Positions 31,468 to 55,288 of a stretch of 64,000 bases of DNA are shown here, piece by piece. Positions within the stretch are counted from its first letter, which is position 1; each line of letters begins with the position of its first letter. The DNA comes from Thermoplasmata archaeon (GTDB lineage: Archaea > Thermoplasmatota > Thermoplasmata > WALJ01), in contig JALTFR010000042.1 of assembly GCA_027006785.1 (NCBI GenBank), positions 30,113 to 94,112 of the forward strand, in the 5' to 3' direction. Under the pieces are notes generated by a model. The model ran no database searches. It saw nothing but the letters and a program-made list of their open reading frames with translations, and was not told where the DNA came from. Both the position numbers and the translations under genes were made by a program.

Positions 31468-31582
31468 CCATATGCCTCCTCGATCTTTAAATTTCCAGAT
31501 AGACATCTGGAAATACTATATATAGTTTTCTCAGATTACAACTCTATGCGCTCTCCGCTTGTGAAAAATAGCAAAACATATT

Positions 31583-40183: not shown

Positions 40184-40843
40184 ATGTTAAAGCTTCTGGA
40201 ATTCAATTCCAACCCCTTCTTAGGGGTCATGGGCCTGGCCACAGAGCGCTTCGCACTTGTACCCCGAGGCCTCCCGGAAGAAACTGTCAAAGAGGTTGAG
40301 AAAGCCCTTGATGTCCCTGCAATAGAGATGCATGTTGGCGGTTCGATTCTTCTTGGCTCCCTCATAGCATCCAATTCGAAAGGTGCTGTCGTATCCTATA
40401 TCATAGAGGAAGATGAGCTGAAAGAACTGGAGAAGTATGTAGATGTGCTTGTACTTGAGGACAAACACAATGCCGCCGGAAACAACATACTGGTGAACGA
40501 CAATTTCGCTCTTATACACCCGAATATAAGTGCAAGATGGGTGAGAAAGATAGAGGATGTTCTGGGTGTTCCTGCAAAGAAGGGCACTGTGGCAGACATA
40601 CCCACGGTCGGCTCTGCGGCTGCAGTTACTGATAAAGGTGGACTCGCTCATCCGGAGGCGGATGATGGAGAGCTGGAATACCTGAAAGACCTCTTCGAAG
40701 TCCCTTTCTACAGGGGCACCGCAAACTATGGCAGCGGTTTCGTGGGTGCGTGCATGATTGCAAACTCAAAAGGAGCTGTCGTGGGAAACACGACAACAAA
40801 TGTTGAGATCAGCCGCATCGAGGACGCTTTTGACCTTCTCTGA
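40184..40843 (+). CDS. eif6: Translation initiation factor 6 (aIF6)
   Basis: 'NPFLGVMGLATERFALVP...' five-fold pseudo-repeat typical of eIF6; conserved position after L31e. Confidence 0.75.
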   Translation: MLKLLEFNSNPFLGVMGLATERFALVPRGLPEETVKEVEKALDVPAIEMHVGGSILLGSLIASNSKGAVVSYIIEEDELKELEKYVDVLVLEDKHNAAGNNILVNDNFALIHPNISARWVRKIEDVLGVPAKKGTVADIPTVGSAAAVTDKGGLAHPEADDGELEYLKDLFEVPFYRGTANYGSGFVGACMIANSKGAVVGNTTTNVEISRIEDAFDLL

Positions 40844-40880
40844 GCAAAATATTTTATAGGTTGTTCTTCTTCCCCATTTC

Positions 40881-41720
40881 ATGCTTAAAAAGCCCCTTGC
40901 GGCTCTGGTCTTACTCGTACTTATGCTCTCTGCGATAGCGTCAGGTTCAGGCACATCCGGCATGAGTGTCACGGACTATGTCTGCGACCCAACATACACG
41001 AACCACATTTTCTCAAATTTCTCAAATCCCATCATATACCCCGGAAATACGGGAAACCTGAGATTCAGGTTGAACAACCCTTACAACATGACCATGCACA
41101 ACATCTCCCTGACAGCAGAGATATATGCATTTGCAACGCTTGAGGAGTACAGAACAATAGACGAGACCTTCAATGATGCTCCTATAATAGAACAGAGCGG
41201 AAGCAGATTGTACAATGACCGTGTCAGTGAACTCCTGCCCTCTATGAACATAAGCTATTCCCTCAGCATGAAAACGGAAAAAGGAACGCCTCAGGGCGTG
41301 TACTATGTACGATTTATACTTGAATTCGATTACTCCAACTCAACGAATAACTCTGCAAGCCACTTTATCATGCTCTCCATGTCATATTACTCCAAAGAGC
41401 AGTGGAAATATGCAGCACAGGAACCCACCGATTCCGATATGCCCTATTACAGACACGGAATAAACGTGACATATCTCAGTCTCTTCCACCCTGTTGATGC
41501 CATCATACCGTTCACAAGCTTTTCAGTCCACAAAGGAATACCGAAATGGCCGATGTTCGTCCTCGAAGGAGCTGCCGCATTCTTCGCCGTACTGTCATAT
41601 ATGTATTACATGAATGACAACTATGGAAAATACAGATGGTTAGACGAGAAGACCAAGCAGATGTCTGGCAAATACCAGAAGTTTAGGAGAAGACTTTACG
41701 AGAGGGCGCGCCAGAAGTGA
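40881..41720 (+). CDS. Secreted/membrane-anchored N-glycosylation-rich hypothetical protein
   Basis: Signal peptide 'MLKKPLAALVLLVLMLSAIASGSG'; C-terminal TM 'FVLEGAAAFFAVLSYMYY' plus basic tail; many N-x-S/T. Confidence 0.4.
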   Translation: MLKKPLAALVLLVLMLSAIASGSGTSGMSVTDYVCDPTYTNHIFSNFSNPIIYPGNTGNLRFRLNNPYNMTMHNISLTAEIYAFATLEEYRTIDETFNDAPIIEQSGSRLYNDRVSELLPSMNISYSLSMKTEKGTPQGVYYVRFILEFDYSNSTNNSASHFIMLSMSYYSKEQWKYAAQEPTDSDMPYYRHGINVTYLSLFHPVDAIIPFTSFSVHKGIPKWPMFVLEGAAAFFAVLSYMYYMNDNYGKYRWLDEKTKQMSGKYQKFRRRLYERARQK

Positions 41721-42779
41721 CGGATGATCTATATCTCCGATTTCACCTATTATTCTCCTTGAATTCTCGTTGTTAAGCTCGTGAATTATCTTTTCCATGT
41801 CCTTCTCCGACAGCCGGGCGTAGATTTTTCTTATGTACATGCCGTTCTTTATCTCCTTTCCGACTGATGAGCTCCATGCCCTCTGATATGCAGATAATAA
41901 TGGTAGGCACTCCTTATCCTTATCAAATGACTCAGATAGGGCATCTACCAGCATTTGGGCAGCGCTGAGCCCGGGATAAAGTCCTCCTCCCGAGAGGGGC
42001 TTTACCTGCACTGCCGAGTCTCCCACAAGAGCCACACCGGGCCCAACGATGTTTCTAGAATAACCTATGGGTATTGAACCGCCATATATGGACAGAGAGT
42101 GCCTTTCAAGCTCAGAAAAACGCTTTTTCAGTATGTCCTGGGCCGAAGGGTCACCTGAACTTGCAGTACCTATGAGCGAACCCTCATCCAGAGGAATCTG
42201 CCACGTGAAAAATGAGGATTCCGGTTCAGGCCATATCCTGACCTCGTCCACTTCTTCCGGGGACTGTGCCTGAAATGCCCCGAGAATCTCTCTGGGCCGG
42301 TCCATATCGAATCTTCTTGCGACCAGTGAACTGGCTCCGTCCGCACCCACTACGAAACGGGAGCGCACCTTCACTTTTTCACCCGATGAGCTCAAAGTCG
42401 TTATCATTCCCCTTCCATCCTTCTCGAATGAGACGACCCTCGCACCAAGCATTATATCCGCACCCGCACGTATGGCTGAAGATGCAAGCTCTCTGTCAAA
42501 CATAGCCCTATCTATGGCTATTGCCTTCACATCTCCCGACTCTATGAGAAGTTCTTCAGAGCCCGAGTACACGATGGCGGACCTGAGTTTCTTTTTTACC
42601 ACCCGCCGACTTGAGCCAGCCATATCGAGAACACGGGGACTCACAAGCCCAGAACACTGCAGAGGCCGCCCAATCTCTCTGTGCTCTTCCACGATAAGTA
42701 CTGAAAAACCCTTTTCTGCCATACCTCTGGCAACAAAAGAGCCTGCCGGTCCTCCGCCGACCACCAGGACATCATACAT
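41640..42779 (-). CDS. Geranylgeranyl reductase family (digeranylgeranylglycerophospholipid reductase-like) flavoprotein
   Basis: FAD fold 'YDVLVVGGGPAGSFVARGMAEKGFSVLIVEE'; GGR-like 'GDSAVQVKPLSGGG'. Confidence 0.7.
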   Translation of the reverse strand: MYDVLVVGGGPAGSFVARGMAEKGFSVLIVEEHREIGRPLQCSGLVSPRVLDMAGSSRRVVKKKLRSAIVYSGSEELLIESGDVKAIAIDRAMFDRELASSAIRAGADIMLGARVVSFEKDGRGMITTLSSSGEKVKVRSRFVVGADGASSLVARRFDMDRPREILGAFQAQSPEEVDEVRIWPEPESSFFTWQIPLDEGSLIGTASSGDPSAQDILKKRFSELERHSLSIYGGSIPIGYSRNIVGPGVALVGDSAVQVKPLSGGGLYPGLSAAQMLVDALSESFDKDKECLPLLSAYQRAWSSSVGKEIKNGMYIRKIYARLSEKDMEKIIHELNNENSRRIIGEIGDIDHPSLLARPLVKSSPKLLVFARHLLGLLV

Positions 42780-42783
42780 CCTA

Positions 42784-43524
42784 TCACTTCGGCGTTATCC
42801 CTCTGTTCGTGACGGAATACTCCATGATGCCCAGCCTCTCAGGATGGTTACGAACCTTCTGAATTATGAGATAATGGATGAAATTCCTGTCCTTTCTCTG
42901 TTTCTCCAGCTCTATTATCGCATCCACGATTTCTTCAACTCCGCTCTCCGTCTTCGGTTCATGCACCCCTTTCAACATGGTCACCAGCACAACACCCCTC
43001 TGATGCTGGCTATGGGCCTTTATCGTTCTAAGGGCCGACATGACCTGCTGAGGATCATAATATTCGAGGAAGAAATCAAGGGAATCTATTATGACTCTGA
43101 AAGGGGGCTTCAGCTTTGATATCTCATAAGTGACCTTCGTGAGAAAATTGACTCCTTTTGATATGTCCTGCTCCCTCAATCTCTTCAGGTCGCGTATGGT
43201 AACTCCTTCCTGACGATAACGACTTATCTCAACCTCCCTTGCAAGGACCTTCTCGTAGTATTCGCCACCTATGTTGACTATGTTAATATTGGGGTCCCAT
43301 CCGAAATGTTCCATTGTCTTTTTGACATCCTCGTCCCGTTCGTTGGTGGTGAAGTATATGACATTCTCCTTTCCCACGCCGGCGGATGCAAACTGCTTGG
43401 CAAAGAGTTCCGTACCCGAACCCGGTGAGCCCTGCACCAGTATCATGAAACCCTCGGGAACTCCACCGAGAAAATTGTCCAGTTCAGGAATTCCTATTGC
43501 TCTGTGACCGGACTCCATTACCAT
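42784..43524 (-). CDS. KaiC/RecA-superfamily ATPase-like protein with degenerate P-loop
   Basis: 'GIPELDNFLGGVPEGFMILVQGSPGSGTELFAKQF' (GxxGxGTE, no Lys); Walker B-like 'RVIIDSLDFF'. Confidence 0.6.
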   Translation of the reverse strand: MVMESGHRAIGIPELDNFLGGVPEGFMILVQGSPGSGTELFAKQFASAGVGKENVIYFTTNERDEDVKKTMEHFGWDPNINIVNIGGEYYEKVLAREVEISRYRQEGVTIRDLKRLREQDISKGVNFLTKVTYEISKLKPPFRVIIDSLDFFLEYYDPQQVMSALRTIKAHSQHQRGVVLVTMLKGVHEPKTESGVEEIVDAIIELEKQRKDRNFIHYLIIQKVRNHPERLGIMEYSVTNRGITPK

Positions 43525-44096
43525 TCCTCCGTTATCTCTATACGCTCATCACATACCATTGTCAGGGCATGGTCTATCTCATCCGAGCTCTGCTCCTTTA
43601 TTGACAACACTATGGTGTATGCATTCTTAGACCTCAGGCTGTTGAAAAGTATGTGCATGAACTCCGAGAGTATCCTTATATTGTTGTGTATGGCAAGAGA
43701 GTTTATGGAATCTATGAATATGAGCTTTCCTCTCTTGGGATCCAGCTTTCTCAGAAGATACTCAACCTTCAGCATTATGTTTTCCAGCATGGTTGCGCTC
43801 TCCACATAGAGCACGTGCCCGTTCGTCGTCTTATTGTCCATGAGAACGCTTGAACCACAATCCACGAAGTATATGTGGTCTCTTTTCATCTCCAGCAGGT
43901 CCATCACATTTATTATGGAGGCAGCCGGAAGGGTAGAATTTATGTATATCACGTCAAGATTCTTCTCTATTGAGACTTTTTCCGTAAGTGTACGAATAAC
44001 ATCGAAATAGCTCTCGGAGCTGACCTCAAGGGCTATGACCGATGCCTCACTTATGCCCTTCATCTTCTCGTATGCCTGATCCATCACTCCCATCAC
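43518..44096 (-). CDS. RecA-fold domain protein lacking a P-loop (DUF835-like), middle gene of the KaiC-like cassette
   Basis: 'KLIFIDSINSLAIHN' Walker-B-like strand, no GK[ST]; 7-nt and 4-nt overlaps with neighbours. Confidence 0.45.
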   Translation of the reverse strand: MMGVMDQAYEKMKGISEASVIALEVSSESYFDVIRTLTEKVSIEKNLDVIYINSTLPAASIINVMDLLEMKRDHIYFVDCGSSVLMDNKTTNGHVLYVESATMLENIMLKVEYLLRKLDPKRGKLIFIDSINSLAIHNNIRILSEFMHILFNSLRSKNAYTIVLSIKEQSSDEIDHALTMVCDERIEITEEW

Positions 44097-44862
44097 TCGC
44101 CACCTCCTTTGAGCATCGGAACAAGAAGGACACCTATCGGTGTGAGATCGAGCACGTATTTTGCACGGGAGTGACTGGTGCCCCTCATCTTGACGACCTG
44201 AAGCGTCCTCAGAAGGTCGCCTCTACGCTCATAGTTTCCCATCAGTATTATACCGTCTGCAATGGCCTCCTCAACACCGTACGTGGAATATCTCGCGTCG
44301 GATGGCAGTATTTCAGAGACAAGAAGGCTCGTACATCCCAGCTGCGAGAGCTTCTTCCCGAGTTTGAGTATGAAATCGCGTATCTTCTCCTCGGTCTTCA
44401 GCTGGAAGCATACAGATGTCACGGAGTCTATGACGAGCCTCTTTATGTTGAGCTCCTTTACGATGTCCCCGAGAGCATTGACAAGAAGGTCGATCTCTTC
44501 AAAGGAGAACTCGGATTTCTGAAGGCCCAGCCGTTCATATATGGCAGGCATATCTATGAATATCAGTTTTCCCTTCTTCAAAAGGTCCTCACTGAAGAAC
44601 TCATAGGGAATAAGGTTTGCAAGAAGCTTTTCTGAGGCCTCTGTTACCGAGACAAAAAGGCAGTTCTCACCGTAGAGAGCTCCGTGGACAAGAAACTCCA
44701 GACTGGTTGTTGTCTTACCCGTACCGCAACTTCCTGTTACAAGTACGGTGTTTCCCCGGGGTATCCCGCCGTTCAAAATTGCGTCGAGAGTGTCTATTCC
44801 TGTGCGGCATCGGGGTCTGTCAGAAGATTTTGCTGAGCCTTTCTTTGCAGTCTCTGAGGTCA
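44093..44862 (-). CDS. KaiC-like RecA-superfamily ATPase (intact Walker A/B)
   Basis: 'GIDTLDAILNGGIPRGNTVLVTGSCGTGKTTTSLEF'; Walker B 'RLVIDSVTSV'; start preferred at 'MTSETAKKG'. The track start 45064 adds an atypical Cys/Phe-rich extension. Confidence 0.65.
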
Positions 44863-45090
44863 TCGCAGGGGTATGAGCGCTACATACATATATCTTTTTT
44901 GCCACAGAACTCGAAAATGACCCTGTGATGTGAAAAGTTGAAAAATAAACAAGATATGTAAAGTAGCTTGAAAAAGTGTGGTTTTTTCGTGTCTGACAAA
45001 AGAAAAACCTTATATACCCATCTTCCATACAAGATGTTGTGCCCGATGAGGGGCTGAAACACAAGATGTGTGATAGACAGAGGTAGATAG

Positions 45091-45555
45091 ATGAGATGCC
45101 CGTACTGTGGAAGTGTAGACACCAAAGTCGTGGATTCCCGCTACTCCGAAGACATGGAAGCGATACGCAGGAGGAGAGAGTGCCTTAACTGCGGAAAGAG
45201 GTTCACAACATATGAAAGGGTTGAGATCGCTCCGATAATCGTGATAAAAAAGAACGGAGAGAAAGAGGAGTTCAACGCTGAAAAGATAAAGAAAGGGATG
45301 AAGCGCGCCTGCGAAAAGAGGCCTATAAACGAGGAGGACATCGACATAGCAGTGCGGGAGATTGAGAGAGACCTGAGAAAAAGGGATTCCATCGAGGTTT
45401 CAAGCATGGAAATAGGTGAGATGGTCATGGAAAAACTTAGGTCGATGGACAAGGTTGCATACATCCGGTTCGCCTCGGTCTATCGCGAGTTCGAGGACGT
45501 GGAAACGTTCCAGAAGGAAATAAACCTGATATTGGAAAAATACGGAGGCAGATAG
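45091..45555 (+). CDS. nrdR: Transcriptional repressor NrdR (Zn-ribbon + ATP-cone)
   Basis: 'MRCPYCGSVDTKVVDSRYSEDMEAIRRRRECLNCGKRFTTYERVE'. Confidence 0.85.
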   Translation: MRCPYCGSVDTKVVDSRYSEDMEAIRRRRECLNCGKRFTTYERVEIAPIIVIKKNGEKEEFNAEKIKKGMKRACEKRPINEEDIDIAVREIERDLRKRDSIEVSSMEIGEMVMEKLRSMDKVAYIRFASVYREFEDVETFQKEINLILEKYGGR

Positions 45556-45556
45556 A

Positions 45557-48025
45557 ATGGGACTGGAAAAAGTAAGGAAAAGAGACGGAAGGGTCGTGGA
45601 TTTCGACCAAACGAAGATAACTGAGGCCATAAAGAAGGCATTCATAGCCAAGGGTTATATGCCCGAGACAGCCAACCTGCTGTCTAAGAGCCTTGCGGAC
45701 AAGGTTGTCGGAAAACTTGAGAAGAGGTTTGCAGACGAGATACCTGAGATAGAGGACATTCAGGACCTTGTTGAAGCCACCCTTATAGAAGAGAACTTCA
45801 GCAAGGTCGCAAAAGCATACATATTGTACAGAAAGCAGAGAGAGGATGTGAGGAAGCTCAAGGAAACGATGCTCGAGGTTGATAGAGTAATGGACGGCTA
45901 CCTCGACAGAATAGACTGGAGGGTGAATGAGAACAGCAATTCCGATTACTCTCTTTCAGGGCTCCTGATGCATGCGGCAGGCTCCGTTGTTGCGAACTAT
46001 GTACTCACAAAAGTATATCCGAAGGAGATTGCGGATGCCCACAGGAACGGTGATTTCCACATACACGACCTTTCCATGGGAATAGCCGGTTACTGTGCCG
46101 GATGGAGCCTAAAACAGCTTCTTACAGAGGGTTTCAACGGTGTTGACGGAAAGGTTGCGTCATCTCCGCCAAAACACCTTGAGACAGCGCTCGGCCAGAT
46201 GGTCAATTTCCTCGGAACCCTTCAGAACGAATGGGCGGGTGCAATGGCATTTTCCTCCTTCGACACATATCTCGCACCCTTTGTCAGAGTGGACAACCTG
46301 AATTACAAACAGGTAAAGCAGGCCATACAGCAGTTCGTGTTCAGCCTGAATGTCGCAAGCAGGTGGGGCGGACAGACTCCCTTCACCAACATAACTCTGG
46401 ATTGGGTCGTTCCAGAGGATATGAAGGAAGAACCCGCCATAGTTGGAGGAAAGCTGGCCGACTTCAATTACGGGGATCTTCAGAAGGAAATGGATGTGAT
46501 CAACAAGGCATTCATAGAGGTCATGATGGACGGAGATGCCAACGGCAGACCGTTCACATTCCCGATACCCACATACAATATAACATCGGATTTCGACTGG
46601 GACAGCGAGAACGCCACATTGCTCTTCGATATGACCGCAAAATATGGCCTGCCCTACTTCCAGAACTTCATAAACAGCGACCTCAACCCGGGAGATGTCA
46701 GGTCAATGTGCTGCAGGCTCCAGCTGAACCTGAAGGAACTTAAGGCAAAGACAGGAGGTCTCTTCGGTTCCGGAGAGTGCACGGGTTCCATCGGAGTGGT
46801 GACTCTGAACATGCCCCGGATAGGATACCTTTCAAAGACGAAGGAGGAGTTCTTCGAGAGGATAGCGAAGCTCATGGACCTTGCAAAGGAGTCCCTTGAG
46901 ATAAAGAGAAAGGTTGTCAACCGGAACATGGAAAATGGCCTTCTGCCCTATACCAAGAGATATCTCGGAACGCTGGACAACCACTTTTCCACCATAGGCC
47001 TGGTGGGAATGAACGAAGCCGCACTCAACTTCATGGGTAAGGACATAGGAAGTGAAGAGGGAAGGAAGTTCGCAATAGAGGTGCTGAACTTTATGAGGGA
47101 CAAACTGACACAGTTCCAGGAAGAGACCGGACACATATACAACCTCGAGGCTACGCCTGCAGAGGGAACTTCCTACAGGCTTGCGAGGATTGATAAAGAG
47201 AAGTATCCGGACATCATAACCGCCGGAGAGGACGAGCCATACTATACCAACTCCACCCAGCTTCCAGTGGGATACACGGATGATATCTTCGAGGCCCTCG
47301 ACCTTCAGGATGACCTTCAGAAGCTCTATACCGGCGGAACCGTCCTTCACGGATTCCTCGGCGAAGAACTGGACAATGCGGAGTCCTGCAAGCTCCTTGT
47401 CAGGAGGATAGCGGAGAATTACAGGCTACCATACTACACGATAACACCGACATTCTCCATATGCAAGCAGCACGGATACATACCGGGTGAGCACTTCACC
47501 TGCCCCAAGTGCGGAGAGCCCACAGAGGTCTATTCGAGGGTTGTGGGCTACTTCAGGCCGGTCCAGAACTGGAACAAGGGAAAGAAGGAGGAATTCAAGG
47601 AGAGGCTTGAGTTCAACATAAAGAAGAGGGGCATAAGGCCGCCCGCACAGCATGCCGTTTCTGCACCCAAACCCGCTGAAGAGGGCCCTGCAATGGATAT
47701 AATGAGTTCCTCGTCCCCACAGGCTAGCGGAGAGGTTGCAGCGGAAGTAACGCCCATCTCTGCCGGAATACCTGAGGAGAAGAGTGTTGCAAAGTACATC
47801 TTCTTCTGGGCCGAACACTGCCCCCACTGCCCGGCGGTAAAGATGTATCTGGCGGATAAGGCTGCGGACATCCCGGGAGAACCAGTAAACGTTGACACGG
47901 AAGAAGGCAGGGAACTTGCCCTCAAATACGATATAATTGGCACTCCAACAGTGATACTTCTGGATGAGAGCGGTAATGAGCTGTCAAGGGTCAACAACAT
48001 CGGAGGACTGCGCAAATGGTTGTAA
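45557..48025 (+). CDS. nrdD: Anaerobic (class III) ribonucleoside-triphosphate reductase NrdD with N-terminal ATP-cone and C-terminal CPHC thioredoxin-fold fusion
   Basis: ATP-cone 'KVRKRDGRVVDFDQTKI'; Zn-site 'CPKCG'; glycyl-radical motif 'RVVGYFRPV'; C-terminal 'YIFFWAEHCPHCPAVKMYL...IIGTPTVILLD'. Confidence 0.85.
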   Translation: MGLEKVRKRDGRVVDFDQTKITEAIKKAFIAKGYMPETANLLSKSLADKVVGKLEKRFADEIPEIEDIQDLVEATLIEENFSKVAKAYILYRKQREDVRKLKETMLEVDRVMDGYLDRIDWRVNENSNSDYSLSGLLMHAAGSVVANYVLTKVYPKEIADAHRNGDFHIHDLSMGIAGYCAGWSLKQLLTEGFNGVDGKVASSPPKHLETALGQMVNFLGTLQNEWAGAMAFSSFDTYLAPFVRVDNLNYKQVKQAIQQFVFSLNVASRWGGQTPFTNITLDWVVPEDMKEEPAIVGGKLADFNYGDLQKEMDVINKAFIEVMMDGDANGRPFTFPIPTYNITSDFDWDSENATLLFDMTAKYGLPYFQNFINSDLNPGDVRSMCCRLQLNLKELKAKTGGLFGSGECTGSIGVVTLNMPRIGYLSKTKEEFFERIAKLMDLAKESLEIKRKVVNRNMENGLLPYTKRYLGTLDNHFSTIGLVGMNEAALNFMGKDIGSEEGRKFAIEVLNFMRDKLTQFQEETGHIYNLEATPAEGTSYRLARIDKEKYPDIITAGEDEPYYTNSTQLPVGYTDDIFEALDLQDDLQKLYTGGTVLHGFLGEELDNAESCKLLVRRIAENYRLPYYTITPTFSICKQHGYIPGEHFTCPKCGEPTEVYSRVVGYFRPVQNWNKGKKEEFKERLEFNIKKRGIRPPAQHAVSAPKPAEEGPAMDIMSSSSPQASGEVAAEVTPISAGIPEEKSVAKYIFFWAEHCPHCPAVKMYLADKAADIPGEPVNVDTEEGRELALKYDIIGTPTVILLDESGNELSRVNNIGGLRKWL

Positions 48026-48717
48026 TGAACGGGATGCAGAACACTTCGTTCATAGACTATCCCGGGAAGATAGTCACCACCATCTTCTTCGGGAACTGCA
48101 ACTTCCGCTGCCCCTATTGCCACAACTCCGACCTGGTCTTCAACAGGGACCTTCCGCAGATCGAGCACACGGTACTGCTGGAGCATCTGAAGAAGAGAAA
48201 GGGCATGCTGGACGGTATATGCATAACAGGGGGTGAGCCCACCCTCCATCCCGACCTTCCCGAACTGATAAGGGATGTGAAGGAACTGGGCTTCCTTGTT
48301 AAACTGGACAGCAACGGAACGAACCCGCGCATGCTGGAGGGACTCTTCTCCGACGGGCTGGTGGATTACATCGCAATGGACATAAAGGCACCAAAGGAGA
48401 AATACTCCGAGGTCGTGAAGGTGAATGTCAACATGGATCTCATTCAGCAGAGCATAGACCTGATACGAGAGATGGCTCCGGACTACGAGTTCAGGACCAC
48501 CATACCCAGGGAACTGCTCACCGAAGACGACATAATGTCCATAGGAGAGTGGATAAAGGGGGCGAAGAGGTATGCGCTCCAGCAGTTCAAGCCGAACAAG
48601 CCGCTTGACCCCGCATGCCTGGAATGCCATGGATATACCAAAAAGGAAATGGATGCCATGGCAGAGCGCCTGAAAGGGTACTTCGACGAGGTCCTGGTGC
48701 GGGCAAAGGACGACTGA
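48016..48717 (+). CDS. nrdG: Anaerobic RNR activating enzyme (radical SAM) NrdG
   Basis: 'GNCNFRCPYCHN' CxxxCxxC; 10-nt overlap with nrdD. Confidence 0.8.
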   Translation: MVVMNGMQNTSFIDYPGKIVTTIFFGNCNFRCPYCHNSDLVFNRDLPQIEHTVLLEHLKKRKGMLDGICITGGEPTLHPDLPELIRDVKELGFLVKLDSNGTNPRMLEGLFSDGLVDYIAMDIKAPKEKYSEVVKVNVNMDLIQQSIDLIREMAPDYEFRTTIPRELLTEDDIMSIGEWIKGAKRYALQQFKPNKPLDPACLECHGYTKKEMDAMAERLKGYFDEVLVRAKDD

Positions 48718-48750: not shown

Positions 48751-48945
48751 ATGAGCGATATACCTCCTCACAAACACTGTCCCGTATGCGGGATATCTAT
48801 ACCTCCCGACCAGGAATTCTGCTCCAGAAAATGCGAGAAAGTATGGGAAGATGCCATGAGAAAGAAGAAGAAAAGTGCATACCTGCTGTGGGCTCTCATG
48901 GGCATACTGGTTGCTGTGGGAGTGTGGATGATGCTGGGGAAATGA
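48751..48945 (+). CDS. DUF2116-type zinc-ribbon small membrane protein
   Basis: 'HCPVCGISIPPDQEFCSRKCEK' plus C-terminal TM. Confidence 0.5.
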   Translation: MSDIPPHKHCPVCGISIPPDQEFCSRKCEKVWEDAMRKKKKSAYLLWALMGILVAVGVWMMLGK

Positions 48946-48946
48946 C

Positions 48947-49930
48947 ATGATATGTGTGGGCGGGACCTTTGAACACCTCCATGCGGGGCACAGGAAACTC
49001 CTGGAAACGGCATTCTCAATCGGAGGAAAGGTATACATCGGCCTGAGCACCGATGAGTTCGCATCCAAGGGACGGGAAAGGGATGTGCTTCCGTACGAAG
49101 TCAGAAGGAAGAACCTTATGAAGTACCTCGAGAGCATGGGATACGAGGATTATGATATAGAGCCCCTCGACGACAGAGTCGGAAGGTGTCTTGAAAAGGA
49201 GTGCAGCGAACTGGTTGTTTCGGAGGAAACTGAGGCTGTTGCCTCGGAGATAAACAGGACGCGCTCCGCCCTGGGCCTTCCTCAGATGAGAGTGCATGTG
49301 GTGCCCTATGTCCTTGCCGATGATTTCAGGCCCATAAGTTCCACAAGGATACATGCTGGAGAGATAGATGAGGACGGAAGGTTGAAACGCCCGCTCAAAG
49401 TAGCGGTTGGCTCGGTGAATCCAAACAAAGTTGAAGCGGTGAGATCCGTGCTATCCGAGTTCTACGATGATGTGGTCGTGCAGGGCATCGGTGTTGACCC
49501 CGGAGTTCCAGAACAACCGTTCAATGAGGACACGGTGAAAGGGGCGATGAACCGTGCCAGAAAGGCACTGAAAGGATGGGAGGATGCGGACCTGGGGGTC
49601 GGTATAGAGGCAGGGCTCGTTCTGGAAAGGACGACCGGACGGTACTATGATGTGCAGTACTGTGCCATAATGGACAGAACCGGATGGGTCACGGTAGGAC
49701 ATGGACCCGGGTTCTACTATCCGAAGAAGGTCATGTCCAGAGTTAGCGAGGGCATAAGCATAGGGGATGCCATGAAAGTGGCTTACGGTGAGGGGGACAT
49801 AGGATATCGGCAGGGCGCAATCGGTTTCCTCACAAAGGGACATTACGACAGGAAGAGGCTCAGCGAGAACGCCGTTATGATGGCCTTCGTTCCCAGGATA
49901 AAAAAAGAGGATTACAGGGAAGAGGTTTAG
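48947..49930 (+). CDS. Fusion: archaeal-type phosphopantetheine adenylyltransferase (N-terminal) + YjjX/DUF84 non-canonical purine NTPase (C-terminal)
   Basis: N-terminal '[20 protein letters not shown]' (nucleotidyltransferase H.GH); C-terminal '[19 protein letters not shown]...[25 protein letters not shown]' (DUF84 pattern). Confidence 0.6.
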
Positions 49931-51558
49931 AACTCGTCGTTTCCGAAGTCGCCGCCACCTCCGCCCGAGGACTTGCTCTCATTTCCTTTTGCGGCTATGA
50001 CGTCATCTATACGCAGCACCATGGTGGCAACATCGGTCGCAGCGCTTATGGCCTGTCTGTCCACCCTTATCGGCTCGACGACATTGCGCTCCCTCATATC
50101 CACAATATCACCTGTGAATACGTCCAATCCCGCGCTGCGTTTTCCGTCCTTGTGAGCCTTTCTCAGCTTTATGAGTGTGTCGATGACATCCAGTCCCGCA
50201 TTCTCTGCCAGAGCACGGGGTATTCCTTCGAGCGCATCGGCAAATGCCTCTATGGCCATCTGCTCCCTTCCTCCGATGGTGGCTGCATAATCCCTGAGCT
50301 GGAGGGCGATCTCCACTGCGCTGGCACCGCCGCCTGCCACAAGTTTTCCGTCCTCAAGGGCTATCGCAACTGTGTGAAGGGCATCATTTAGGATTCTTTC
50401 CACCTCGTTCACGACATGCTCGCTTCCTCCGCGTATTAGTATGCTCACGGATCTGGGGTTCTTGCATTCCATCACGAATGTCATGTCGTCATCGCCTATC
50501 TTCCTCTCCTCGACGAGGCCTGCATTTCCAAGATCATCCTTGGTTAGCTCGTCCAGACCGGTGACTATATTTGCTCCTGTTGCCCTTGCAAGCTTCTCCA
50601 TATCCGACTTCTTTACCCTGCGAACCGCATATATGCCCTCCTTTGCCATAAAGTGCTGGGCCATGTCGTCTATTCCCTTCTGACAGAATACGACATTGGC
50701 ACCCGTTGCCCTGACCTTCTCGACCATGTCTCTCAGCATCTTCTCTTCCTGGTCTAAGAAGGCCTGTATCTGAGAGGGGTCATTTATGCGTATATTCGCA
50801 TCTATCTCTGTCTTCTTTATTTCCATTGGTGCATTTATAAGTGCTATCCTTGCATTCTTAACGGAAGAGGGCATGCCGGGATGCACCTTCTCTTTGTCAA
50901 GTATTACTCCTTCTATCAGCTCTGTATCGCCTATCGAGCCCCCGTTCTTCTTCTCCACCTTTATGCTGTCCATATCCACCCGATATACCTTTCCGTCCTT
51001 TTCGGCAACGCTCTTGACGGCCTTCACCACAAGCTCTGCCAGATATTTCCTTGTCTCACCCTCTGCGCTCTTTCCTGTCATGGATGTAATCGCTATGCTC
51101 TTCAGTATCTCGTCGTCGCTCAGGTCTATTTCCTGTCCAAGGTCTTCCAGTATCTCGAAGGCCTTTGCGGATGCCATCTGATATCCTCTGGTTATGGTGG
51201 TGGAATGCACGTTCTCTTCGAGAAGTTCCTGTGCTCTGCTTAGAAGTTCACCTGCAAGAACTACGGCCGTTGTCGTTCCGTCACCGCATTCCTGGTCCTG
51301 GGACTTGGCAACCTCGATTATCATCTTTGCTGCAGGATGGACAACATCCATTTCCTTCAGGATGGTAACCCCGTCATTGGTTATTGTCACATCTCCCATA
51401 CTATCAACCAGCATCTTGTCCATCCCTTTCGGACCGAGTGTTGTCCTGACCGCATCCGCTATTGCCTTTGCAGCCTCGATGTTCTTCATCTGAGCGCTCT
51501 TTCCGGATTCCCTTTCCGTTCCTTCCTTCAGGATATATATGGGTGTTCCTCCGAGCAT
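49927..51558 (-). CDS. ths: Thermosome subunit (group II chaperonin)
   Basis: '[12 protein letters not shown]', '[21 protein letters not shown]'; C-terminal Gly-rich tail. Confidence 0.9.
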
Positions 51559-51643: not shown

Positions 51644-51683
51644 GGGATGGAGAATATACCCATCTGCTGAGGTGGCATATTAT

Positions 51684-53363
51684 ATGGCAGAATCAAGCAA
51701 GGTTTCAGAAAAGGATTCGAAGAAATTCGATCTCTTCTCAATAATGGAGCCATTCATACGTAAAACTCCAAAAAAGATAATGATACCCGCAAAGGAGGCG
51801 GAAGAAAAGAGCGACGAGGGTTCCATATACACGAACATACCTCCGATAACGGACCCCAACATAGACATTCTGGAAATAAAGCCCGTTATTGAGGATTTTG
51901 CATATGCCAGAATAATATATGACAATGCCAACAGCGAATACATATATGAAGCCATAGAACCTCAGTTGAATGATAAGGAAAAGGAATACCTGACACTGAT
52001 AAAGGATTCTCTCAGCAAGACAATGGACTACGAGTGGGAGAAACTTGCCGACCATGACAAAAGAGAATACCTTGTGGAGAGCATAGAAAGTTTCATTAAA
52101 AGCCGAAATATAGAACTTCCGGATGTCAGCAGGGAGAAGGTGATGTACTACCTTGTGAGGGATTTCATAGGATACGGTCGAGTTGATATCCTGATGAAAG
52201 ACGACGACATAGAGGATATCTCCTGCGATGGTACCAATATTCCGATATTCATATTCCATAAGAAGTATGAGTCAATAAAAACCACCGTGAAATTCGAAGA
52301 AGACGAGATTCTGGATTCATTTATAATATCCCTCGGGCAGCGCTGCGGAAAGAACATATCCGTGGCAACACCAATTCTAGATGGTACCAGCAAGGAAGGT
52401 CACAGGATTCAGGCCACTTATTCACACGAGGTCACCACCAGAGGCTCGTCCTTCACAATAAGGAGATTCAAAGAGAAGCCCTTCACACCTGTGGAACTCG
52501 TGAAATTCAAAACTGCCTCTCCCGAGATGATAGCTTACCTCTGGATGATGGTTGAAAACGGAAAATCCCTCATCGTCTGCGGAGGCACTGCCTGTGGAAA
52601 GACCGCAACCCTCAACGCTATAAGTCTGTTCATACCTCCTGGAGCGAAGATAGTCACCATGGAGGATACCCGGGAGATAAACCTGCCGCATGAGAACTGG
52701 ATACCCGGTGCAACAAGGAGCGGTGTGGGGGAAAGAGGTGCCGATGGAAAGGCCGCGGGTGAGATTGATATGTACGACCTTGTGAGGGCAGCATTGAGGC
52801 AGAGGCCGAACTACATCATAGTCGGAGAGGTCAGAGGTAAGGAAACATACACCATGTTCCAGGCCATGGCAACGGGCCATACCACATATACCACCATGCA
52901 CGCCGATTCCGTAAAATCCATGGTTCACAGGCTTGAGAACCCACCTATCAATACGCCAAGAATACTTCTTACCGCCCTCAATCTCGTCATAATCCAGAGT
53001 TTTGCCAGACTTAAGGATCAGCAGGTTAGGAGAATAAAAGAGATTGTTGAAATAGTCGGCTTCGAGGCGGAGACCAATGAACTCGTAACAAATCAGGTCT
53101 ATGCTTGGAATCAGATAACGGATAGCTTTATATATAAGGGTCATAGCTTTATACTGGATGCGATTATGGAAATGAAGAATATGACACACGAGGATATGCA
53201 GAATGAGATGGACAGGAGAACCGAGGTTATCGAATATATGGTAAAAAAGGACATAACGGATTACAGGGAGATTGCTAAGATAATCACTGCTTATTACAAA
53301 GACCCCGAAGAGACGATAGACCGTATTAGAGAAGAACTTGCGGAGGAAGAGAATGAGTCCTGA
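51684..53363 (+). CDS. FlaI/TadA/GspE-family secretion ATPase (pilus/archaellum-type), paralog 1
   Basis: Walker A 'CGGTACGKTATLNA'; 'IIVGEVRGKETY'; His-box 'TTMHADS'. Confidence 0.8.
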   Translation: MAESSKVSEKDSKKFDLFSIMEPFIRKTPKKIMIPAKEAEEKSDEGSIYTNIPPITDPNIDILEIKPVIEDFAYARIIYDNANSEYIYEAIEPQLNDKEKEYLTLIKDSLSKTMDYEWEKLADHDKREYLVESIESFIKSRNIELPDVSREKVMYYLVRDFIGYGRVDILMKDDDIEDISCDGTNIPIFIFHKKYESIKTTVKFEEDEILDSFIISLGQRCGKNISVATPILDGTSKEGHRIQATYSHEVTTRGSSFTIRRFKEKPFTPVELVKFKTASPEMIAYLWMMVENGKSLIVCGGTACGKTATLNAISLFIPPGAKIVTMEDTREINLPHENWIPGATRSGVGERGADGKAAGEIDMYDLVRAALRQRPNYIIVGEVRGKETYTMFQAMATGHTTYTTMHADSVKSMVHRLENPPINTPRILLTALNLVIIQSFARLKDQQVRRIKEIVEIVGFEAETNELVTNQVYAWNQITDSFIYKGHSFILDAIMEMKNMTHEDMQNEMDRRTEVIEYMVKKDITDYREIAKIITAYYKDPEETIDRIREELAEEENES

Positions 53364-54369
53364 AGTGAGCGATGCGTTCAAAGGCCTTGATACGAAGAAA
53401 TGGAGCCTTTTCCACACCAAAAGAGTGAAGACAGGCGACGTAATAGAGGGTTATGGGCCACATATAGTCTATCTGCCAAAAGAGGCTGTTCCGAGCCAGA
53501 TAAAGCTCACTCCATTTCAGCAGACCGCTCTGAGGATAATGGGAAAAAAGGCGGAGAAAGAGGTGGAAAAATACCCTGATCTGGATGAATGGCTGGTAAA
53601 GGCAAGGATGAGGATGAGGGCGGAGGAATACATTGCGTACGTGCTTCTGACAACATATCTAATGTGGGCAATAGCCGGTGTCCTTGCTATCATCTTCATA
53701 GCGCTCTACAGCGTAATTGGAGTTCTTTCGATAATGATTGCTATTATAATGATAATGATCGCTTTCATGATCAAACCTCTCATGCTTTCGATGCCTAAAT
53801 CGAAGGCAAAGTCCAGGGGCAGGAACATAGATAAAAAACTGGCATCCGCAATGTCATTCGTCGCATCACTGGCATCCGCCGATGTCAACGTTGATGTCAT
53901 ATTCAAGGAACTGGCAAAACAACCAATATATGGAGAGATTCAAAAAGAGGCCGAATGGATAACGAGAGACACAGAACTTCTTGGCATAGATATTCTAAAT
54001 GCCATAAAGGAAGGAGCAAGAAGAAGCCCCTCGGTAAAATGGCAGGACTTCCTTCAGGGAGTGGTTACCACATCCACGTCAGGCGGACAGCTGAAACCGT
54101 ACTTCATAGTCAAACTGCAGGAATTCGAGAAGGACAGCCAGCTTGATAACAAGAGAAGGACTGAAACTCTGGGAATGATGGCAGAATCGTATGTCACCGT
54201 GGTCGTTGCGTTCCCACTGTTCCTTATAGTTATCATCGCTATCATGGCGATAACCAACGGACAGGCCGAATCCAGCATACCTATGCTGTATGCGGTGGAT
54301 GCCCTTATGATACCTGGCTCGCAGGGTGTGTTCATTTACATCATGTGGGGTCTTACACAGGAGGCTTGA
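53353..54369 (+). CDS. Single-T2SSF-domain platform protein (TadB/EpdJ-like half of FlaJ)
   Basis: TM segments plus T2SSF domain 'LASAMSFVASLASADVNVDVIFKELAKQ...LNAIKEGARRSPSVKWQDFLQGV'. Confidence 0.65.
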   Translation: MSPEVSDAFKGLDTKKWSLFHTKRVKTGDVIEGYGPHIVYLPKEAVPSQIKLTPFQQTALRIMGKKAEKEVEKYPDLDEWLVKARMRMRAEEYIAYVLLTTYLMWAIAGVLAIIFIALYSVIGVLSIMIAIIMIMIAFMIKPLMLSMPKSKAKSRGRNIDKKLASAMSFVASLASADVNVDVIFKELAKQPIYGEIQKEAEWITRDTELLGIDILNAIKEGARRSPSVKWQDFLQGVVTTSTSGGQLKPYFIVKLQEFEKDSQLDNKRRTETLGMMAESYVTVVVAFPLFLIVIIAIMAITNGQAESSIPMLYAVDALMIPGSQGVFIYIMWGLTQEA

Positions 54370-54370
54370 A

Positions 54371-55288
54371 ATGGCAGAAGACAGTTTCGATCTGGAAAAA
54401 GCGAAGAAAACCGCAAAAAACATCCTCTACATCTCCTTGGCCATAGCCATGATATTCATAGTGGTGGGTCTCCTAGAAACGATAGGTGCAGTTGATATAC
54501 CCCCATTCTCAGCATTCGATTACTTCATATTCGCAATAATGACGATCATGGGCCCTTATGGAATCTATAAGGGAAAGATAGACAAGACCATAGATGAGAT
54601 CGAGAAGAGGCTCCCGGACTTCCTGAGGGATGTCGCAGAGGCTGGAAGGTTCGGTATGACCCTGGCGGACGCCATAGTGGTCGCAGCATCCGGAAGATAT
54701 GGGAAATTGACTCCCGAGATAAAGAAGATGGCCGCACAGATTCAGTGGGGTGTTCCTGCAACACAGGCGCTCAAGCTCTTTGCGGACAGAATAGATACCC
54801 CTCTTGTCAGAAGGGTCACCACGATAGTCATAAAGTCCTCGGACGCAGGAGGTAATGTGGCAGATGTCCTTTCAATGGTCTCCCACAGCGTCAAAGAGGT
54901 CCACCATGCAAAAGAGGAGTTAAGCATAGAGATGGTGACATATCTGGCGGTCATTTACATAGCTTTCATGGTCTTCATAGCCACCATACTCATCCTTGAC
55001 CTGACATTCCTGCCTCAGATGGAACAGGCAGGAGAGGCTCTTTCGGGTTCTGGTGACATAGGTGGTGGGGCAGGTTCAGTTACACTGATACAGTCCCAGT
55101 ACATACCCGAGATAGAATTCATATTCACCCTTACGATCATGATACATGGTGTCGGTGATGGGCTGGTAGCTGGAATCCTCTATAAAGGAAAGATATCTGA
55201 GGGAATGAAACATGCATTCATAATGGTCTTCATAGGGTTCATCACATTCAGGATTCTCTTTGGAGGCATAGGAGTATTAGGAGGTTGA
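54371..55288 (+). CDS. Single-T2SSF-domain platform protein (TadC/EpdK-like half of FlaJ)
   Basis: ATG 1 nt after the previous stop with SD caggagg; 'FLRDVAEAGRFGMTLADAIVVAASG...WGVPATQALKLFADRIDTPLVRRV'. Confidence 0.65.
   Translation: MAEDSFDLEKAKKTAKNILYISLAIAMIFIVVGLLETIGAVDIPPFSAFDYFIFAIMTIMGPYGIYKGKIDKTIDEIEKRLPDFLRDVAEAGRFGMTLADAIVVAASGRYGKLTPEIKKMAAQIQWGVPATQALKLFADRIDTPLVRRVTTIVIKSSDAGGNVADVLSMVSHSVKEVHHAKEELSIEMVTYLAVIYIAFMVFIATILILDLTFLPQMEQAGEALSGSGDIGGGAGSVTLIQSQYIPEIEFIFTLTIMIHGVGDGLVAGILYKGKISEGMKHAFIMVFIGFITFRILFGGIGVLGG

Follow-up and report, generated by a model that had tools for sequence, protein, structure and literature searches.

From which donor does the anaerobic ribonucleotide reductase (RNR) encoded at 45557..48025 draw its electrons, and what does the thioredoxin-like tail at its C terminus do? 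The window (the whole stretch of 64,000 nucleotides of a Thermoplasmata archaeon that was analyzed) carries here three consecutive genes; they, the parts of them described below, and the promoter and boxes ahead of them are on the forward strand. The first gene, nrdR (45091..45555, 154 aa), codes for a repressor made of a Zn-ribbon (C3, C6, C31, C34) and an ATP-cone. The second, nrdD::trx (45557..48025), is a single unbroken open reading frame (ORF) for a fused class III RNR of 822 aa. The third, nrdG (48016..48717), codes for a radical-SAM activase of 233 aa with the motif CNFRCPYC; its product scores 224 bits against NCBIfam TIGR02495 (NrdG2, cutoff 131) and also matches Pfam Radical_SAM. 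In the ORF list, the end of nrdR and the start of nrdD are 1 nt apart, and the start of nrdG overlaps the end of nrdD by 10 nt. The set nrdR–nrdD::trx–nrdG is, as predicted from the sequence, one operon for anaerobic dNTP synthesis in this archaeon.

Enzyme and tail had been proposed in a preliminary description to form one protein. In the window, the reading frame runs without a stop codon from the glycyl-radical motif into the thioredoxin domain. In eight independent Thermoplasmata assemblies (L001–L008), core and thioredoxin domain again share one frame, in a single ORF of 817–837 aa with a linker of variable length, and more than 10 protein clusters hold one frame across unequal linkers. 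An assembly or sequencing error that merged two genes, nrdD and a small redoxin gene, would find some precedent in DPANN loci, where the redoxin is truly a separate gene, and in one relative (P0121), the tail of which is called as a separate protein of 109 aa; P0121 is also the one match obtained when the 88-aa tail by itself was the query of a word-indexed search for homologs. However, the scaffold of P0121 contains ‘NN’ at the frame break, so that its separate call is explained as a gene-calling artefact and P0121 is not retained as a separate redoxin. Against the common frame of the assemblies and clusters, the chance that the fusion is artefactual is negligible. The fusion is thus conserved in relatives, and the frameshift or separate small gene considered previously is excluded by the single ORFs of L001–L008.

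The linker (residues 690–745, 47624..47791) is 56 aa long and predicted to be disordered, with pLDDT values of 26–37 for residues 690–741 in the full-length AlphaFold2 model. Its Ala/Pro/Ser-rich character had been recognized correctly (46%, with A10, P8, and S8) and its length overestimated (about 70 aa). Linker sequence and length differ among homologs. The folded domain, first put at about 100 aa, is a minimal thioredoxin-fold domain of only 77 aa (residues 746–822, 47792..48022) according to Pfam, AlphaFold2, and Foldseek. Pfam Thioredoxin (PF00085) matches residues 748–806 marginally in the full protein (24.3 bits for a gathering score of 23.5) and with 28.4 bits (vs. 23.5) in the isolated tail. 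The model of the tail has a pLDDT of 95.3 and a beta-alpha-beta-alpha-beta-beta-alpha topology; the top 50 PDB entries listed by Foldseek are all thioredoxins, thioredoxin-fold proteins, or Trx-tagged constructs (probability 1.00, TMq 0.64–0.78). The C-terminal tail is, as modeled, a thioredoxin fold.

All the motifs quoted in the preliminary description are present: RVVGYFRPV (661–669), CPHC (755–758), and GTPTV (795–799). The redox motif C755-P-H-C758 (47819..47830) is the same as in PDB 1FO5. In GTPTV, Pro797 (47945..47947) precedes directly strand beta-3 in the AlphaFold2 model and corresponds to the invariant column P57 of alignment A1; it is a candidate for the cis geometry, in agreement with the cis-Pro-like assignment made at first. 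Across 14 homologous tails (alignment A1), both cysteines, the proline between them, and the cis-Pro are fully conserved. The residue x of CPxC differs across the family, with CPNC the most common form. The invariance of CPxC and of the cis-Pro, while the linker drifts, points to selection on a redox-active domain.

The label “DsbA-type” is appropriate for the motif and not for the kinship. Only the tetrapeptide agrees with DsbA: x varies in the family, there is neither a helical insert nor a match to DSBA in Pfam, and the enzyme to which the domain is attached is cytoplasmic. The M. jannaschii thioredoxin MJ0307 (1FO5) has the same minimal fold of ~80 aa and a CPHCPA.K motif identical to that of the window domain; MJ0307 is a standalone general thioredoxin, whereas the window domain is the tail of NrdD. 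With 27.2 bits for a cutoff of 92.75 in TIGR00411, the tail is related to the MJ0307 family but falls outside it. It scores far under the cutoffs of the named thioredoxin equivalogs of NCBIfam. Among its NCBIfam matches at E ≤ 0.1, there is no NrdH model and the best ones are generic thioredoxin models.

The body of the protein is a class III NrdD. It scores 679 bits against Pfam NRDD (PF13597, threshold 26.2, residues 125–686), 590 bits against TIGR02487 (cutoff 326), and 1154 bits against NF006126 (cutoff 548). At the N terminus, residues 5–96 (45569..45844) form an ATP-cone, the allosteric activity site (PF03477, 85 bits), so that the ATP-cone, NRDD, and Thioredoxin families expected from the preliminary description are all matched. 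In the glycyl-radical domain, the Zn-binding segment (C636, C649, and C652; 47462..47512) has its three cysteines invariant in alignment A2. It is followed by the glycyl-radical motif RVVGYFRPV (47537..47563), in which G664 (47546–47548) corresponds to G621 of Thermotoga maritima. The match above curated cutoffs, the RVxGY sequence after a Cys-rich Zn site, and the adjacent nrdG are thus all found.

The subtypes of NrdD differ by finger-loop motifs (PMC9669993) and NrdD2 is defined by a third active-site cysteine and a glutamate (PMC4493059). In the alignment to the T. maritima structures (4coi/4u3e), Cys180 (46094..46096) is the beta-A active-site cysteine (C125 in T. maritima). The finger loop M384-C385-C386-R387 (46706..46717), of the double-Cys MCCR type, pairs residue by residue with S328-C329-C330-R331 (SCCR), and Glu531 (47147..47149) is equivalent to E495, the glutamate that separates NrdD2 from NrdD1 and NrdD3; the same position is Leu or Tyr in the NrdD1 structures (T4, P. 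copri, S. thermophilus). C180, the CC finger loop, and E531 are invariant in 24 homologs (alignment A2). Third cysteine and glutamate are therefore both present. NrdD3 (M. barkeri type) has the third cysteine without the glutamate, whereas E531 is present and invariant here; NrdD1 has a single-Cys MGCR loop and no glutamate, whereas the loop here is MCCR and the glutamate is present. The window NrdD carries, by alignment, the thioredoxin-type (NrdD2) signature C180, M384-C385-C386, and E531, and the placement in the thioredoxin-dependent subclass made initially stands on these residues.

The reading that we prefer, with a probability of roughly 0.7, is that nrdR–nrdD::trx–nrdG would be a self-contained operon, autoregulated by NrdR, in which the tethered thioredoxin would re-reduce the active-site disulfide. 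The direction of electron flow and the cysteine pairing that we infer are as follows. NrdG would put the glycyl radical on G664, and the radical would move to C385 or C386 in the finger loop, where nucleotide reduction would begin. C180 and the other finger-loop cysteine would supply the two reducing equivalents, E531 would serve as proton shuttle, and an active-site disulfide would be left after reduction, as in the Neisseria bacilliformis NrdD2 enzyme. The thioredoxin domain (C755/C758), held on a disordered tether of ~56 residues leaving the enzyme just past the glycyl-radical loop, could then re-reduce this disulfide by thiol–disulfide exchange, in cis (own subunit) or in trans (dimer partner). 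A thioredoxin reductase (TrxR) or a ferredoxin-dependent reductase, with its gene elsewhere in the genome, would in turn recharge the domain.

One residue counts against such a relay. Met384, the methionine that NrdD1 uses, is kept in the window NrdD and is invariant in alignment A2, so that the formate/thiosulfuranyl chemistry of NrdD1 may still operate (PMC9669993). According to Burnim et al. (2022), MCCR enzymes could in principle take either reductant, and Met is retained in 83% of double-Cys NrdDs, which hence have components of both routes (PMC9669993). The MCCR core with its glutamate might then use formate or the disulfide relay, the fused thioredoxin being the alternative under formate shortage; the many close relatives that have the same active site and no linked redoxin would agree with this. 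Yet no characterized enzyme is reported to use both reductants, Glu531 and the Cys pair are the requirements of the formate-independent route, and nothing on formate metabolism is seen in the window, all of which makes dual use quite improbable. Overall, the arrangement suggests that electrons reach the enzyme through a disulfide relay and not from formate. Of the earlier statement to this effect, the relay is supported, by the NrdD2 residues, the gene linkage, and the TrxR-like gene of Clostridia described below; with Met384 retained and either reductant possible for MCCR enzymes, we only infer the part “rather than formate.”

The gene linkage of the redoxin extends over several phyla. The redoxin is fused to NrdD in Thermoplasmata, Latescibacterota, Fibrobacterota, and Clostridia; in DPANN archaea, it is encoded between nrdD and nrdG; in many bacteria, it is joined to a detached glycyl-radical peptide. 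The locus survey gives ~24 fused loci, ~12 with a separate gene of 80–94 aa between nrdD and nrdG, and 4 with the detached glycyl-radical peptide. In a reverse search from the redoxin, with a profile of the CPNC subgroup (alignment A4), all confident metagenomic members (19/19) sit between the glycyl-radical segment of nrdD and nrdG, and every partner NrdD that was covered is C/MCCR/E. In 84 of the best 150 representative clusters of an exhaustive search, the glycyl-radical motif is present; small standalone proteins account for 48. By this linkage, the CPxC redoxin belongs to a putative family dedicated to NrdD, and NrdD with a tethered thioredoxin is widespread and apparently undescribed.

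The active site is C/MCC[RH]/E in all 80 core sequences (79 fetched loci and the window, all of one NrdD subtype), whether redoxin-linked or not, so that the comparison of linked and unlinked enzymes cannot separate a role in turnover from one in activation. For 44 of the 80, no redoxin occurs within the flanks and the active-site residues are identical; the tethered domain is therefore not needed for the chemistry itself.

Padovani, Mulliez and Fontecave reportedly found in 2001 that thioredoxin is required for activation of the E. coli class III RNR. With this precedent, the domain could serve in maintenance, keeping C636, C649, and C652 reduced for NrdG, with formate as turnover reductant through C180 and Met384. 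The attachment right after the Zn-ribbon and glycyl-radical segment would fit, as would the split forms, in which the redoxin accompanies that segment and not the catalytic body, and the invariance of Met384. On the other hand, the third cysteine and the glutamate, missing from formate-type enzymes, are present in every redoxin-linked NrdD examined (within the one subtype sampled). In addition, five loci of Clostridia have a TrxR-like gene 3–5 nt downstream from nrdD::trx. Its product matches TIGR01292 end to end (287 bits, under the strict equivalog cutoff of 343.45) and has a CA[IV]CD motif. With this gene, a full putative chain from NAD(P)H to TrxR, Trx, and NrdD would be present in one operon, and a TrxR-like gene in the same operon fits a stoichiometric supply of electrons better than occasional repair. 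A role restricted to maintenance or activation is thus unlikely, although it retains some weight.

For the turnover relay that we prefer, the reductase would lie outside the window: a motif scan of the 64 kb, with a check of the neighbor genes, found neither TrxR CxxC nor FTR CPC motifs. A flavoprotein of 379 aa (41640–42779) was considered as the reductase partner and set aside; its matches are to FAD_binding_3 and to families of the geranylgeranyl-reductase-like kind rather than to TrxR.

Several known systems share elements with this one. The NrdD2 enzymes of N. bacilliformis and T. maritima (Wei et al. 2014, as described in PMC4493059 and PMC9669993) have in common with the window NrdD the beta-A cysteine, the two adjacent finger-loop cysteines, the glutamate, and NrdG. 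Their electrons come from Trx/TrxR, as proposed here. They have SCCR and a free thioredoxin encoded elsewhere, whereas the window NrdD has MCCR and the redoxin attached after the glycyl-radical domain. The NrdD3 of Methanosarcina barkeri (Wei et al. 2015; reductant table in PMC9176816) is likewise an archaeal class III RNR with a small dedicated co-encoded redoxin, there NrdH-like and accompanied in the operon by a ferredoxin disulfide reductase. In that account, it has no active-site glutamate and its redoxin is separate, whereas the window NrdD has E531 and a fused redoxin; near the window operon, unlike in M. barkeri, no ferredoxin disulfide reductase was found.

Fusions of a redoxin to an RNR are known. 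In Facklamia ignava Grx::ATP-cone::NrdB, the fused Grx reduces a class I RNR and is by experiment the physiological reductant (PMC6187632), which offers a precedent; it is N-terminal and glutathione-dependent, whereas the window NrdD bears a C-terminal CPxC minimal thioredoxin. Table S1 of the same paper contains a single Glutaredoxin:NrdD, in Lachnospiraceae bacterium TWA4 (PMC6187632). This uncharacterized protein has a Pfam Glutaredoxin on an NrdD of the NrdDd subclass; the window domain, in contrast, is on a different NrdD clade and is widespread. In the PilB-type Trx::MsrA::MsrB (PMC12288474), a thioredoxin likewise recycles the catalytic disulfide of the enzyme that carries it; the client enzyme is unrelated, and the thioredoxin N-terminal and extracytoplasmic, unlike in the window NrdD. 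A review on F. nucleatum was discarded as a report of an NrdD–thioredoxin fusion, the fused thioredoxin domain there being that of MsrAB.

The reductant has been determined for few class III RNRs, and Burnim et al. (2022) left the choice between formate and thioredoxin open for most double-Cys enzymes, those having MCCR with Glu (PMC9669993). In archaea and in several bacterial phyla, a redoxin is fused to MCCR and Glu enzymes or shares their operon, and one clade has a TrxR-like gene directly after them; at the level of genomes, this is evidence for the disulfide route. Enzyme and reductant on one polypeptide would also simplify reconstitution in vitro, with only NrdG and a reductase to be added. 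Many bacteria encode the glycyl-radical loop, which makes up the final ~30 residues of the NrdD profile, apart from the catalytic body; the detached protein, of 150–210 aa, begins with a helix and continues through this loop and a linker to the thioredoxin. We propose tentatively, at somewhat less than even odds, that the minimal thioredoxins with CPxC form a so far undescribed redoxin family, dedicated to NrdD and marking a modular class III RNR. The detached protein, with both the radical site, which is oxygen-labile, and the reductant on it, would be a replaceable cartridge similar to GrcA/YfiD, the spare part for pyruvate formate-lyase, and the window gene would be the fully fused end of the series. 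If so, the linkage of this family to MCCR and Glu enzymes would settle that the largest double-Cys group of class III RNRs uses a disulfide relay.

The presence of nrdR ahead of the operon, already recognized, is confirmed by 197 bits against TIGR00244 (cutoff 124.65) and by Pfam Zn_ribbon_NrdR (PF22811) and ATP-cone (PF03477). The earlier comment on its rarity in archaea is out of date, as 22% of archaeal genomes have NrdR (PMC13584703) and, in many archaeal loci, nrdR is directly upstream of this type of nrdD. Upstream of nrdR, a putative archaeal promoter (45003..45016) consists of a purine-rich BRE-like stretch and a TATA box TTATATA (45010–45016), with TTATA.A kept in 8 Thermoplasmata upstream regions (alignment A3). 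Two candidate NrdR boxes follow. Box 1, ATACAAGATGTTGTGC (45027..45042), matches 6/6 of the highly conserved positions (C4, A6, A8, T9, T11, and G13; PMC13584703) and box 2, ACACAAGATGTGTGAT (45059..45074), 5/6. The spacer is 16 bp (32 bp center to center), and the canonical one is 15–16 bp (PMC12051234). In 8 relatives, the six critical positions of box 1 are invariant and positions 5, 7, and 10 vary; the left half of box 2, ACACAA.AT, is also invariant in relatives.

This is the sole such pair in 64 kb. Shuffled sequences contain a mean of 0.76 box pairs per 64 kb, with at least one pair in 33% of shuffles, and the 9-mer ACAAGATGT occurs 2 times for 0.55 expected. The pair is thus not significant by count, and the case rests on its position and on which positions are conserved. 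The nrdR–nrdD–nrdG operon lies behind a canonical, putative NrdR box pair, through which NrdR would repress its own operon. It would be a defined case of a bacterial-type NrdR and box pair on an archaeal TATA promoter. Further upstream in the window, the region 40374–41643, where Rfam gives no match, is occupied by the ORFs 40184–40843 and 40881–41720.

The nrdD::trx gene (45557–48025, +) is a single ORF of 822 codons. A single nucleotide separates its start codon from the end of the nrdR gene (45091–45555, +; NCBIfam TIGR00244, 197 bits), and nrdG (48016–48717, +; NCBIfam TIGR02495, 224 bits) starts 10 nt ahead of its stop, so that the three genes form a tightly coupled operon. In the NCBIfam scan, the protein matches the NrdD model NF006126 (1154 bits). 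Pfam gives an ATP-cone at residues 5–96, the NRDD core at 125–686 (679 bits), and a Thioredoxin domain at 748–806 (24.3 bits with the full protein, 28.4 bits with the tail scanned by itself; gathering score 23.5).

In the protein, the motifs named in the preliminary description are all present (RVVGYFRPV at 661–669, CPHC at 755–758, and GTPTV at 795–799), with smaller dimensions for the tail, the linker and domain that follow the glycyl-radical motif. The linker measures 56 aa (residues 690–745, with 10 Ala, 8 Pro, and 8 Ser) instead of ~70 aa, and the folded domain 77 aa instead of ~100 aa. An alignment of 14 homologous tails shows no variation at the two Cys and the intervening Pro of CPxC, or at a further Pro located 39 residues past the second Cys. 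AlphaFold2 on that alignment yields the topology beta-alpha-beta-alpha-beta-beta-alpha (pLDDT 95.3). The top 50 Foldseek matches in the PDB are thioredoxins, thioredoxin-fold proteins, or Trx-tagged constructs (probability 1.00, TMq 0.64–0.78), and they include the redoxin chain of a B. subtilis RNR complex. Since alignment, AlphaFold2, and Foldseek all point to a thioredoxin fold, the proposed fold is upheld and the objection that the tail is something else fails. The full-length model agrees, with pLDDT of 26–37 at residues 690–741 and 81–92 at residues 746–821, and describes the C-terminus as a disordered tether with a folded domain at its end. The label “DsbA-type” fits the tetrapeptide only, because CPHCPA.K recurs in MJ0307 (1FO5), a thioredoxin of archaea. 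In NCBIfam, the tail scores far under the cutoffs of both the MJ0307 and TrxA equivalogs and matches no NrdH model.

The fusion (817–837 aa) is kept in eight Thermoplasmata assemblies (loci L001–L008; L001, 90% identical, is the best genomic match to the window) and in the protein clusters P0001–P0010, where core and tail share one frame despite differing linker lengths. The match to L001, together with the KaiC-like, thermosome, and ribosomal protein S19e genes that flank the operon, marks the window as DNA of a Thermoplasmata archaeon. A separately called tail is seen once (P0121), and its scaffolds carry “NN” exactly at the frame break. With one frame in the relatives and “NN” at that break, a frameshift between two genes is therefore refuted, and an artefactual fusion has a negligible probability.

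In a residue-level core alignment with T. maritima NrdD (4coi/4u3e), C180, E531, and G664 of the window enzyme correspond to C125, E495, and G621, and the finger loop M384-C385-C386-R387 aligns to S328-C329-C330-R331. At the position of Glu531, Leu or Tyr is found in the structures of formate-type enzymes (T4, P. copri, S. thermophilus). As defined by Aurelius et al. (PMC4493059), NrdD2 (thioredoxin-dependent) has the third Cys and the Glu, with Met sometimes present, NrdD3 has the third Cys without the Glu, and NrdD1 (formate-dependent) has neither. By its residues, third Cys and Glu531, the window enzyme is therefore an NrdD2 and not of the M. barkeri NrdD3 type, which lacks the active-site Glu. 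C180, the CC finger loop, and E531 are invariant in 24 homologs, fused and unfused, and in 80/80 core sequences (79 fetched loci and the window). Met384 is still present, and for MCCR, which makes up 83% of the double-Cys class, either reductant is possible in principle (Burnim et al. 2022, PMC9669993); we consider a dual-reductant enzyme very unlikely here.

In the best-supported reading, to which we give a probability of about 0.7, the tail serves NrdD as a built-in reductant for turnover. Each nucleotide reduction would leave C180 and a finger-loop Cys as a disulfide, the tethered domain would re-reduce it, in cis or in trans, and a reductase encoded elsewhere would recharge the domain. Domain architecture, fold, residue signature, conservation, and gene linkage are observed directly; the path of the electrons, the cysteines that pair, the choice between cis and trans, and the reductase involved are inferred. 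Within the 64-kb window, we recognised neither a thioredoxin reductase nor a ferredoxin:thioredoxin reductase. In five Clostridia loci (rumen and gut MAGs; L059:1252-4535, L069 and L070:3995-7275, L076:1120-4429, L063:290-3573), nrdG is not adjacent and a gene for a flavoprotein of 304–307 aa starts 3–5 nt after nrdD::trx. This flavoprotein carries the redox motif CA[IV]CD and aligns over the full length with TIGR01292 (thioredoxin-disulfide reductase); its score of 287 bits falls short of the equivalog cutoff of 343.45. Such an operon encodes a complete putative chain, NAD(P)H -> TrxR -> Trx domain -> NrdD. The TrxR-like gene argues against the main rival, in which the role of the domain is to hold nearby cysteines, those of the Zn site and the glycyl-radical domain, in the reduced state that activation needs. 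So does the restriction of the redoxin to CC+Glu enzymes in the loci sampled, which hold no NrdD1 enzymes. Thioredoxin reportedly has a role in activation of the E. coli class III RNR (Padovani et al. 2001, cited in PMC4390871), a precedent for that rival, and in split forms the thioredoxin domain goes with the glycyl-radical peptide; we regard this rival as unlikely.

With the tail HMM scanned over all 80 loci, the redoxin is fused to full NrdD in ~24 (Thermoplasmata, Latescibacterota, Fibrobacterota, Bacteriovoracaceae, Clostridia), stands as its own gene (80–94 aa) with nrdD on one side and nrdG on the other in ~12 (DPANN or other archaea), and is joined to a detached glycyl-radical peptide in 4. 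In a neighbour-joining core tree that, having no bootstrap, is indicative only, these states are spread over five or more clades, with unlinked NrdDs in between. An exhaustive profile search against 1.84 billion representative proteins yields 2867 matches at E <= 1e-3. The best 150 comprise 84 proteins of 131–330 aa with the glycyl-radical motif, 48 standalone proteins (<=130 aa), and 7 mid-size proteins in which no such motif is recognisable; the other 11 are large and unrelated, most of them containing several Trx-like repeats. This library is clustered at 50% identity, so that full-length fusions disappear into clusters with unfused NrdDs. In the CxxC motif of the family, CPNC prevails (78 of the matches <=330 aa) and CPHC is a minor variant. 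Sampling redoxin-first, with the CPNC subgroup profile run against metagenomes, places 19/19 confident matches between the nrdD glycyl-radical segment and nrdG, every covered partner being C/MCCR/E; the six weakest matches have no nrdD nearby. The CPxC redoxin family therefore appears, from gene linkage, to be dedicated to the MCCR+Glu type of NrdD.

Thioredoxin-dependent class III RNRs and redoxin–RNR fusions are already known. In the searchable literature, only one fusion of a redoxin with NrdD is recorded: Lachnospiraceae bacterium TWA4 has a Glutaredoxin:NrdD that belongs to subclass NrdDd (PMC6187632 Table S1). The class III C-terminus is described as the glycyl-radical domain only (Burnim et al., PMC9669993). 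That literature, two primary papers of Wei et al. aside, gave us no account of an NrdD that ends in a CPxC thioredoxin. Public records label these fusions just “ribonucleoside triphosphate reductase.”

The detached subunits of related loci are a more surprising lead than the fused gene. In L066:723-3381 and L056:666-3356 (also P0125, P0127, P0135, and ~80 more representative clusters), the NrdD body stops at NRDD profile position 532/562, by which point it includes the Zn-site CPKC and a short helix. An ORF of its own, 150–210 aa long and preceded by a GGGAGG Shine–Dalgarno sequence, encodes first an N-terminal helix and then the glycyl-radical loop (motif at ~residue 31; profile positions 532–562), which a linker connects to the CPxC thioredoxin. 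Met is the first residue in 83 of 84 detached proteins of this kind. By analogy with GrcA/YfiD, they could be replaceable radical-plus-reductant subunits. Woesearchaeota and Nanoarchaeota show another split (L023:3983-6689, L024:3974-6694, L028:1492-4005, L033:3962-6494, L046:276-2836): a body of ~675 aa terminates within the Zn-ribbon, a 66-aa ORF ~18 nt on (M[AT]KCGM.CEIFSRVVGYHRPVQNWN...) carries the glycyl-radical loop (profile positions 526–562), and a separate redoxin gene of 80–85 aa (MKYKLFTTPMCPKCP...) follows.

A TATA box (TTATATA, 45010–45016) lies 5′ of nrdR, followed by two candidate NrdR boxes of 16 bp, box 1 at 45027–45042 (ATACAAGATGTTGTGC, 6/6 critical positions) and box 2 at 45059–45074 (ACACAAGATGTGTGAT, 5/6). 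The critical positions are C4, A6, A8, T9, T11, and G13 (PMC13584703), and the 16-bp spacer falls in the canonical 15–16 bp (PMC12051234). The count of pairs, one in 64 kb, is weak evidence alone because random sequence gives 0.76 on average; the case for the boxes is carried by position and conservation. In eight Thermoplasmata relatives, box 1 is invariant at precisely its six critical positions and varies at positions 5, 7, and 10. We expect box 1 to overlap the start of transcription, an arrangement that would fit repression by occlusion. NrdR, called uncommon in archaea in the preliminary description and rare in literature of 2022 and 2025, is present in 22% of archaeal genomes in a 2026 survey (PMC13584703). 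Among the loci sampled, those of Methanomicrobia, Thermococci, and Aenigmatarchaeota and many from DPANN archaea have nrdR directly 5′ of this type of nrdD.

In DPANN-type archaea (L062:3866-6139, L067:3491-6139, L074:1221-3839, L080:3521-6118; P0120), the NrdR Zn-ribbon (PF22811) and NrdD share one ORF, with one shared ATP-cone in L062 (757 aa) and P0120 (738 aa) and two in L080 (865 aa). Such an enzyme would bear the DNA-binding domain of its own repressor; the NrdR literature examined makes no mention of this fusion.

Divergent from nrdR, three KaiC/RecA-superfamily ATPase genes stand in a row (42784–45064, −), the middle one a weak match and possibly degenerate. Immediately 3′ of nrdG are a DUF2116 zinc-ribbon/membrane protein (48751–48945) and then a cytidylyltransferase-like domain fused to NTPase_I-T (DUF84, inosine/xanthosine triphosphatase family; 48947–49930), which could be a nucleotide-pool house-cleaning enzyme beside the RNR operon; L001 has the same neighbour. 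Two very large ORFs (11576–17434, +, 1953 aa; 23272–31506, −, 2745 aa) both have a hydrophobic segment at the N-terminus and are presumably surface proteins, and a 157-aa ORF with CxxC nested in the first (16401–16871, −) is probably spurious. The thermosome gene (49927–51558, −) precedes a cluster (51672–55285, +) of a type IV pilus or archaellum-like assembly ATPase (T2SSE) and two T2SSF-family membrane proteins.
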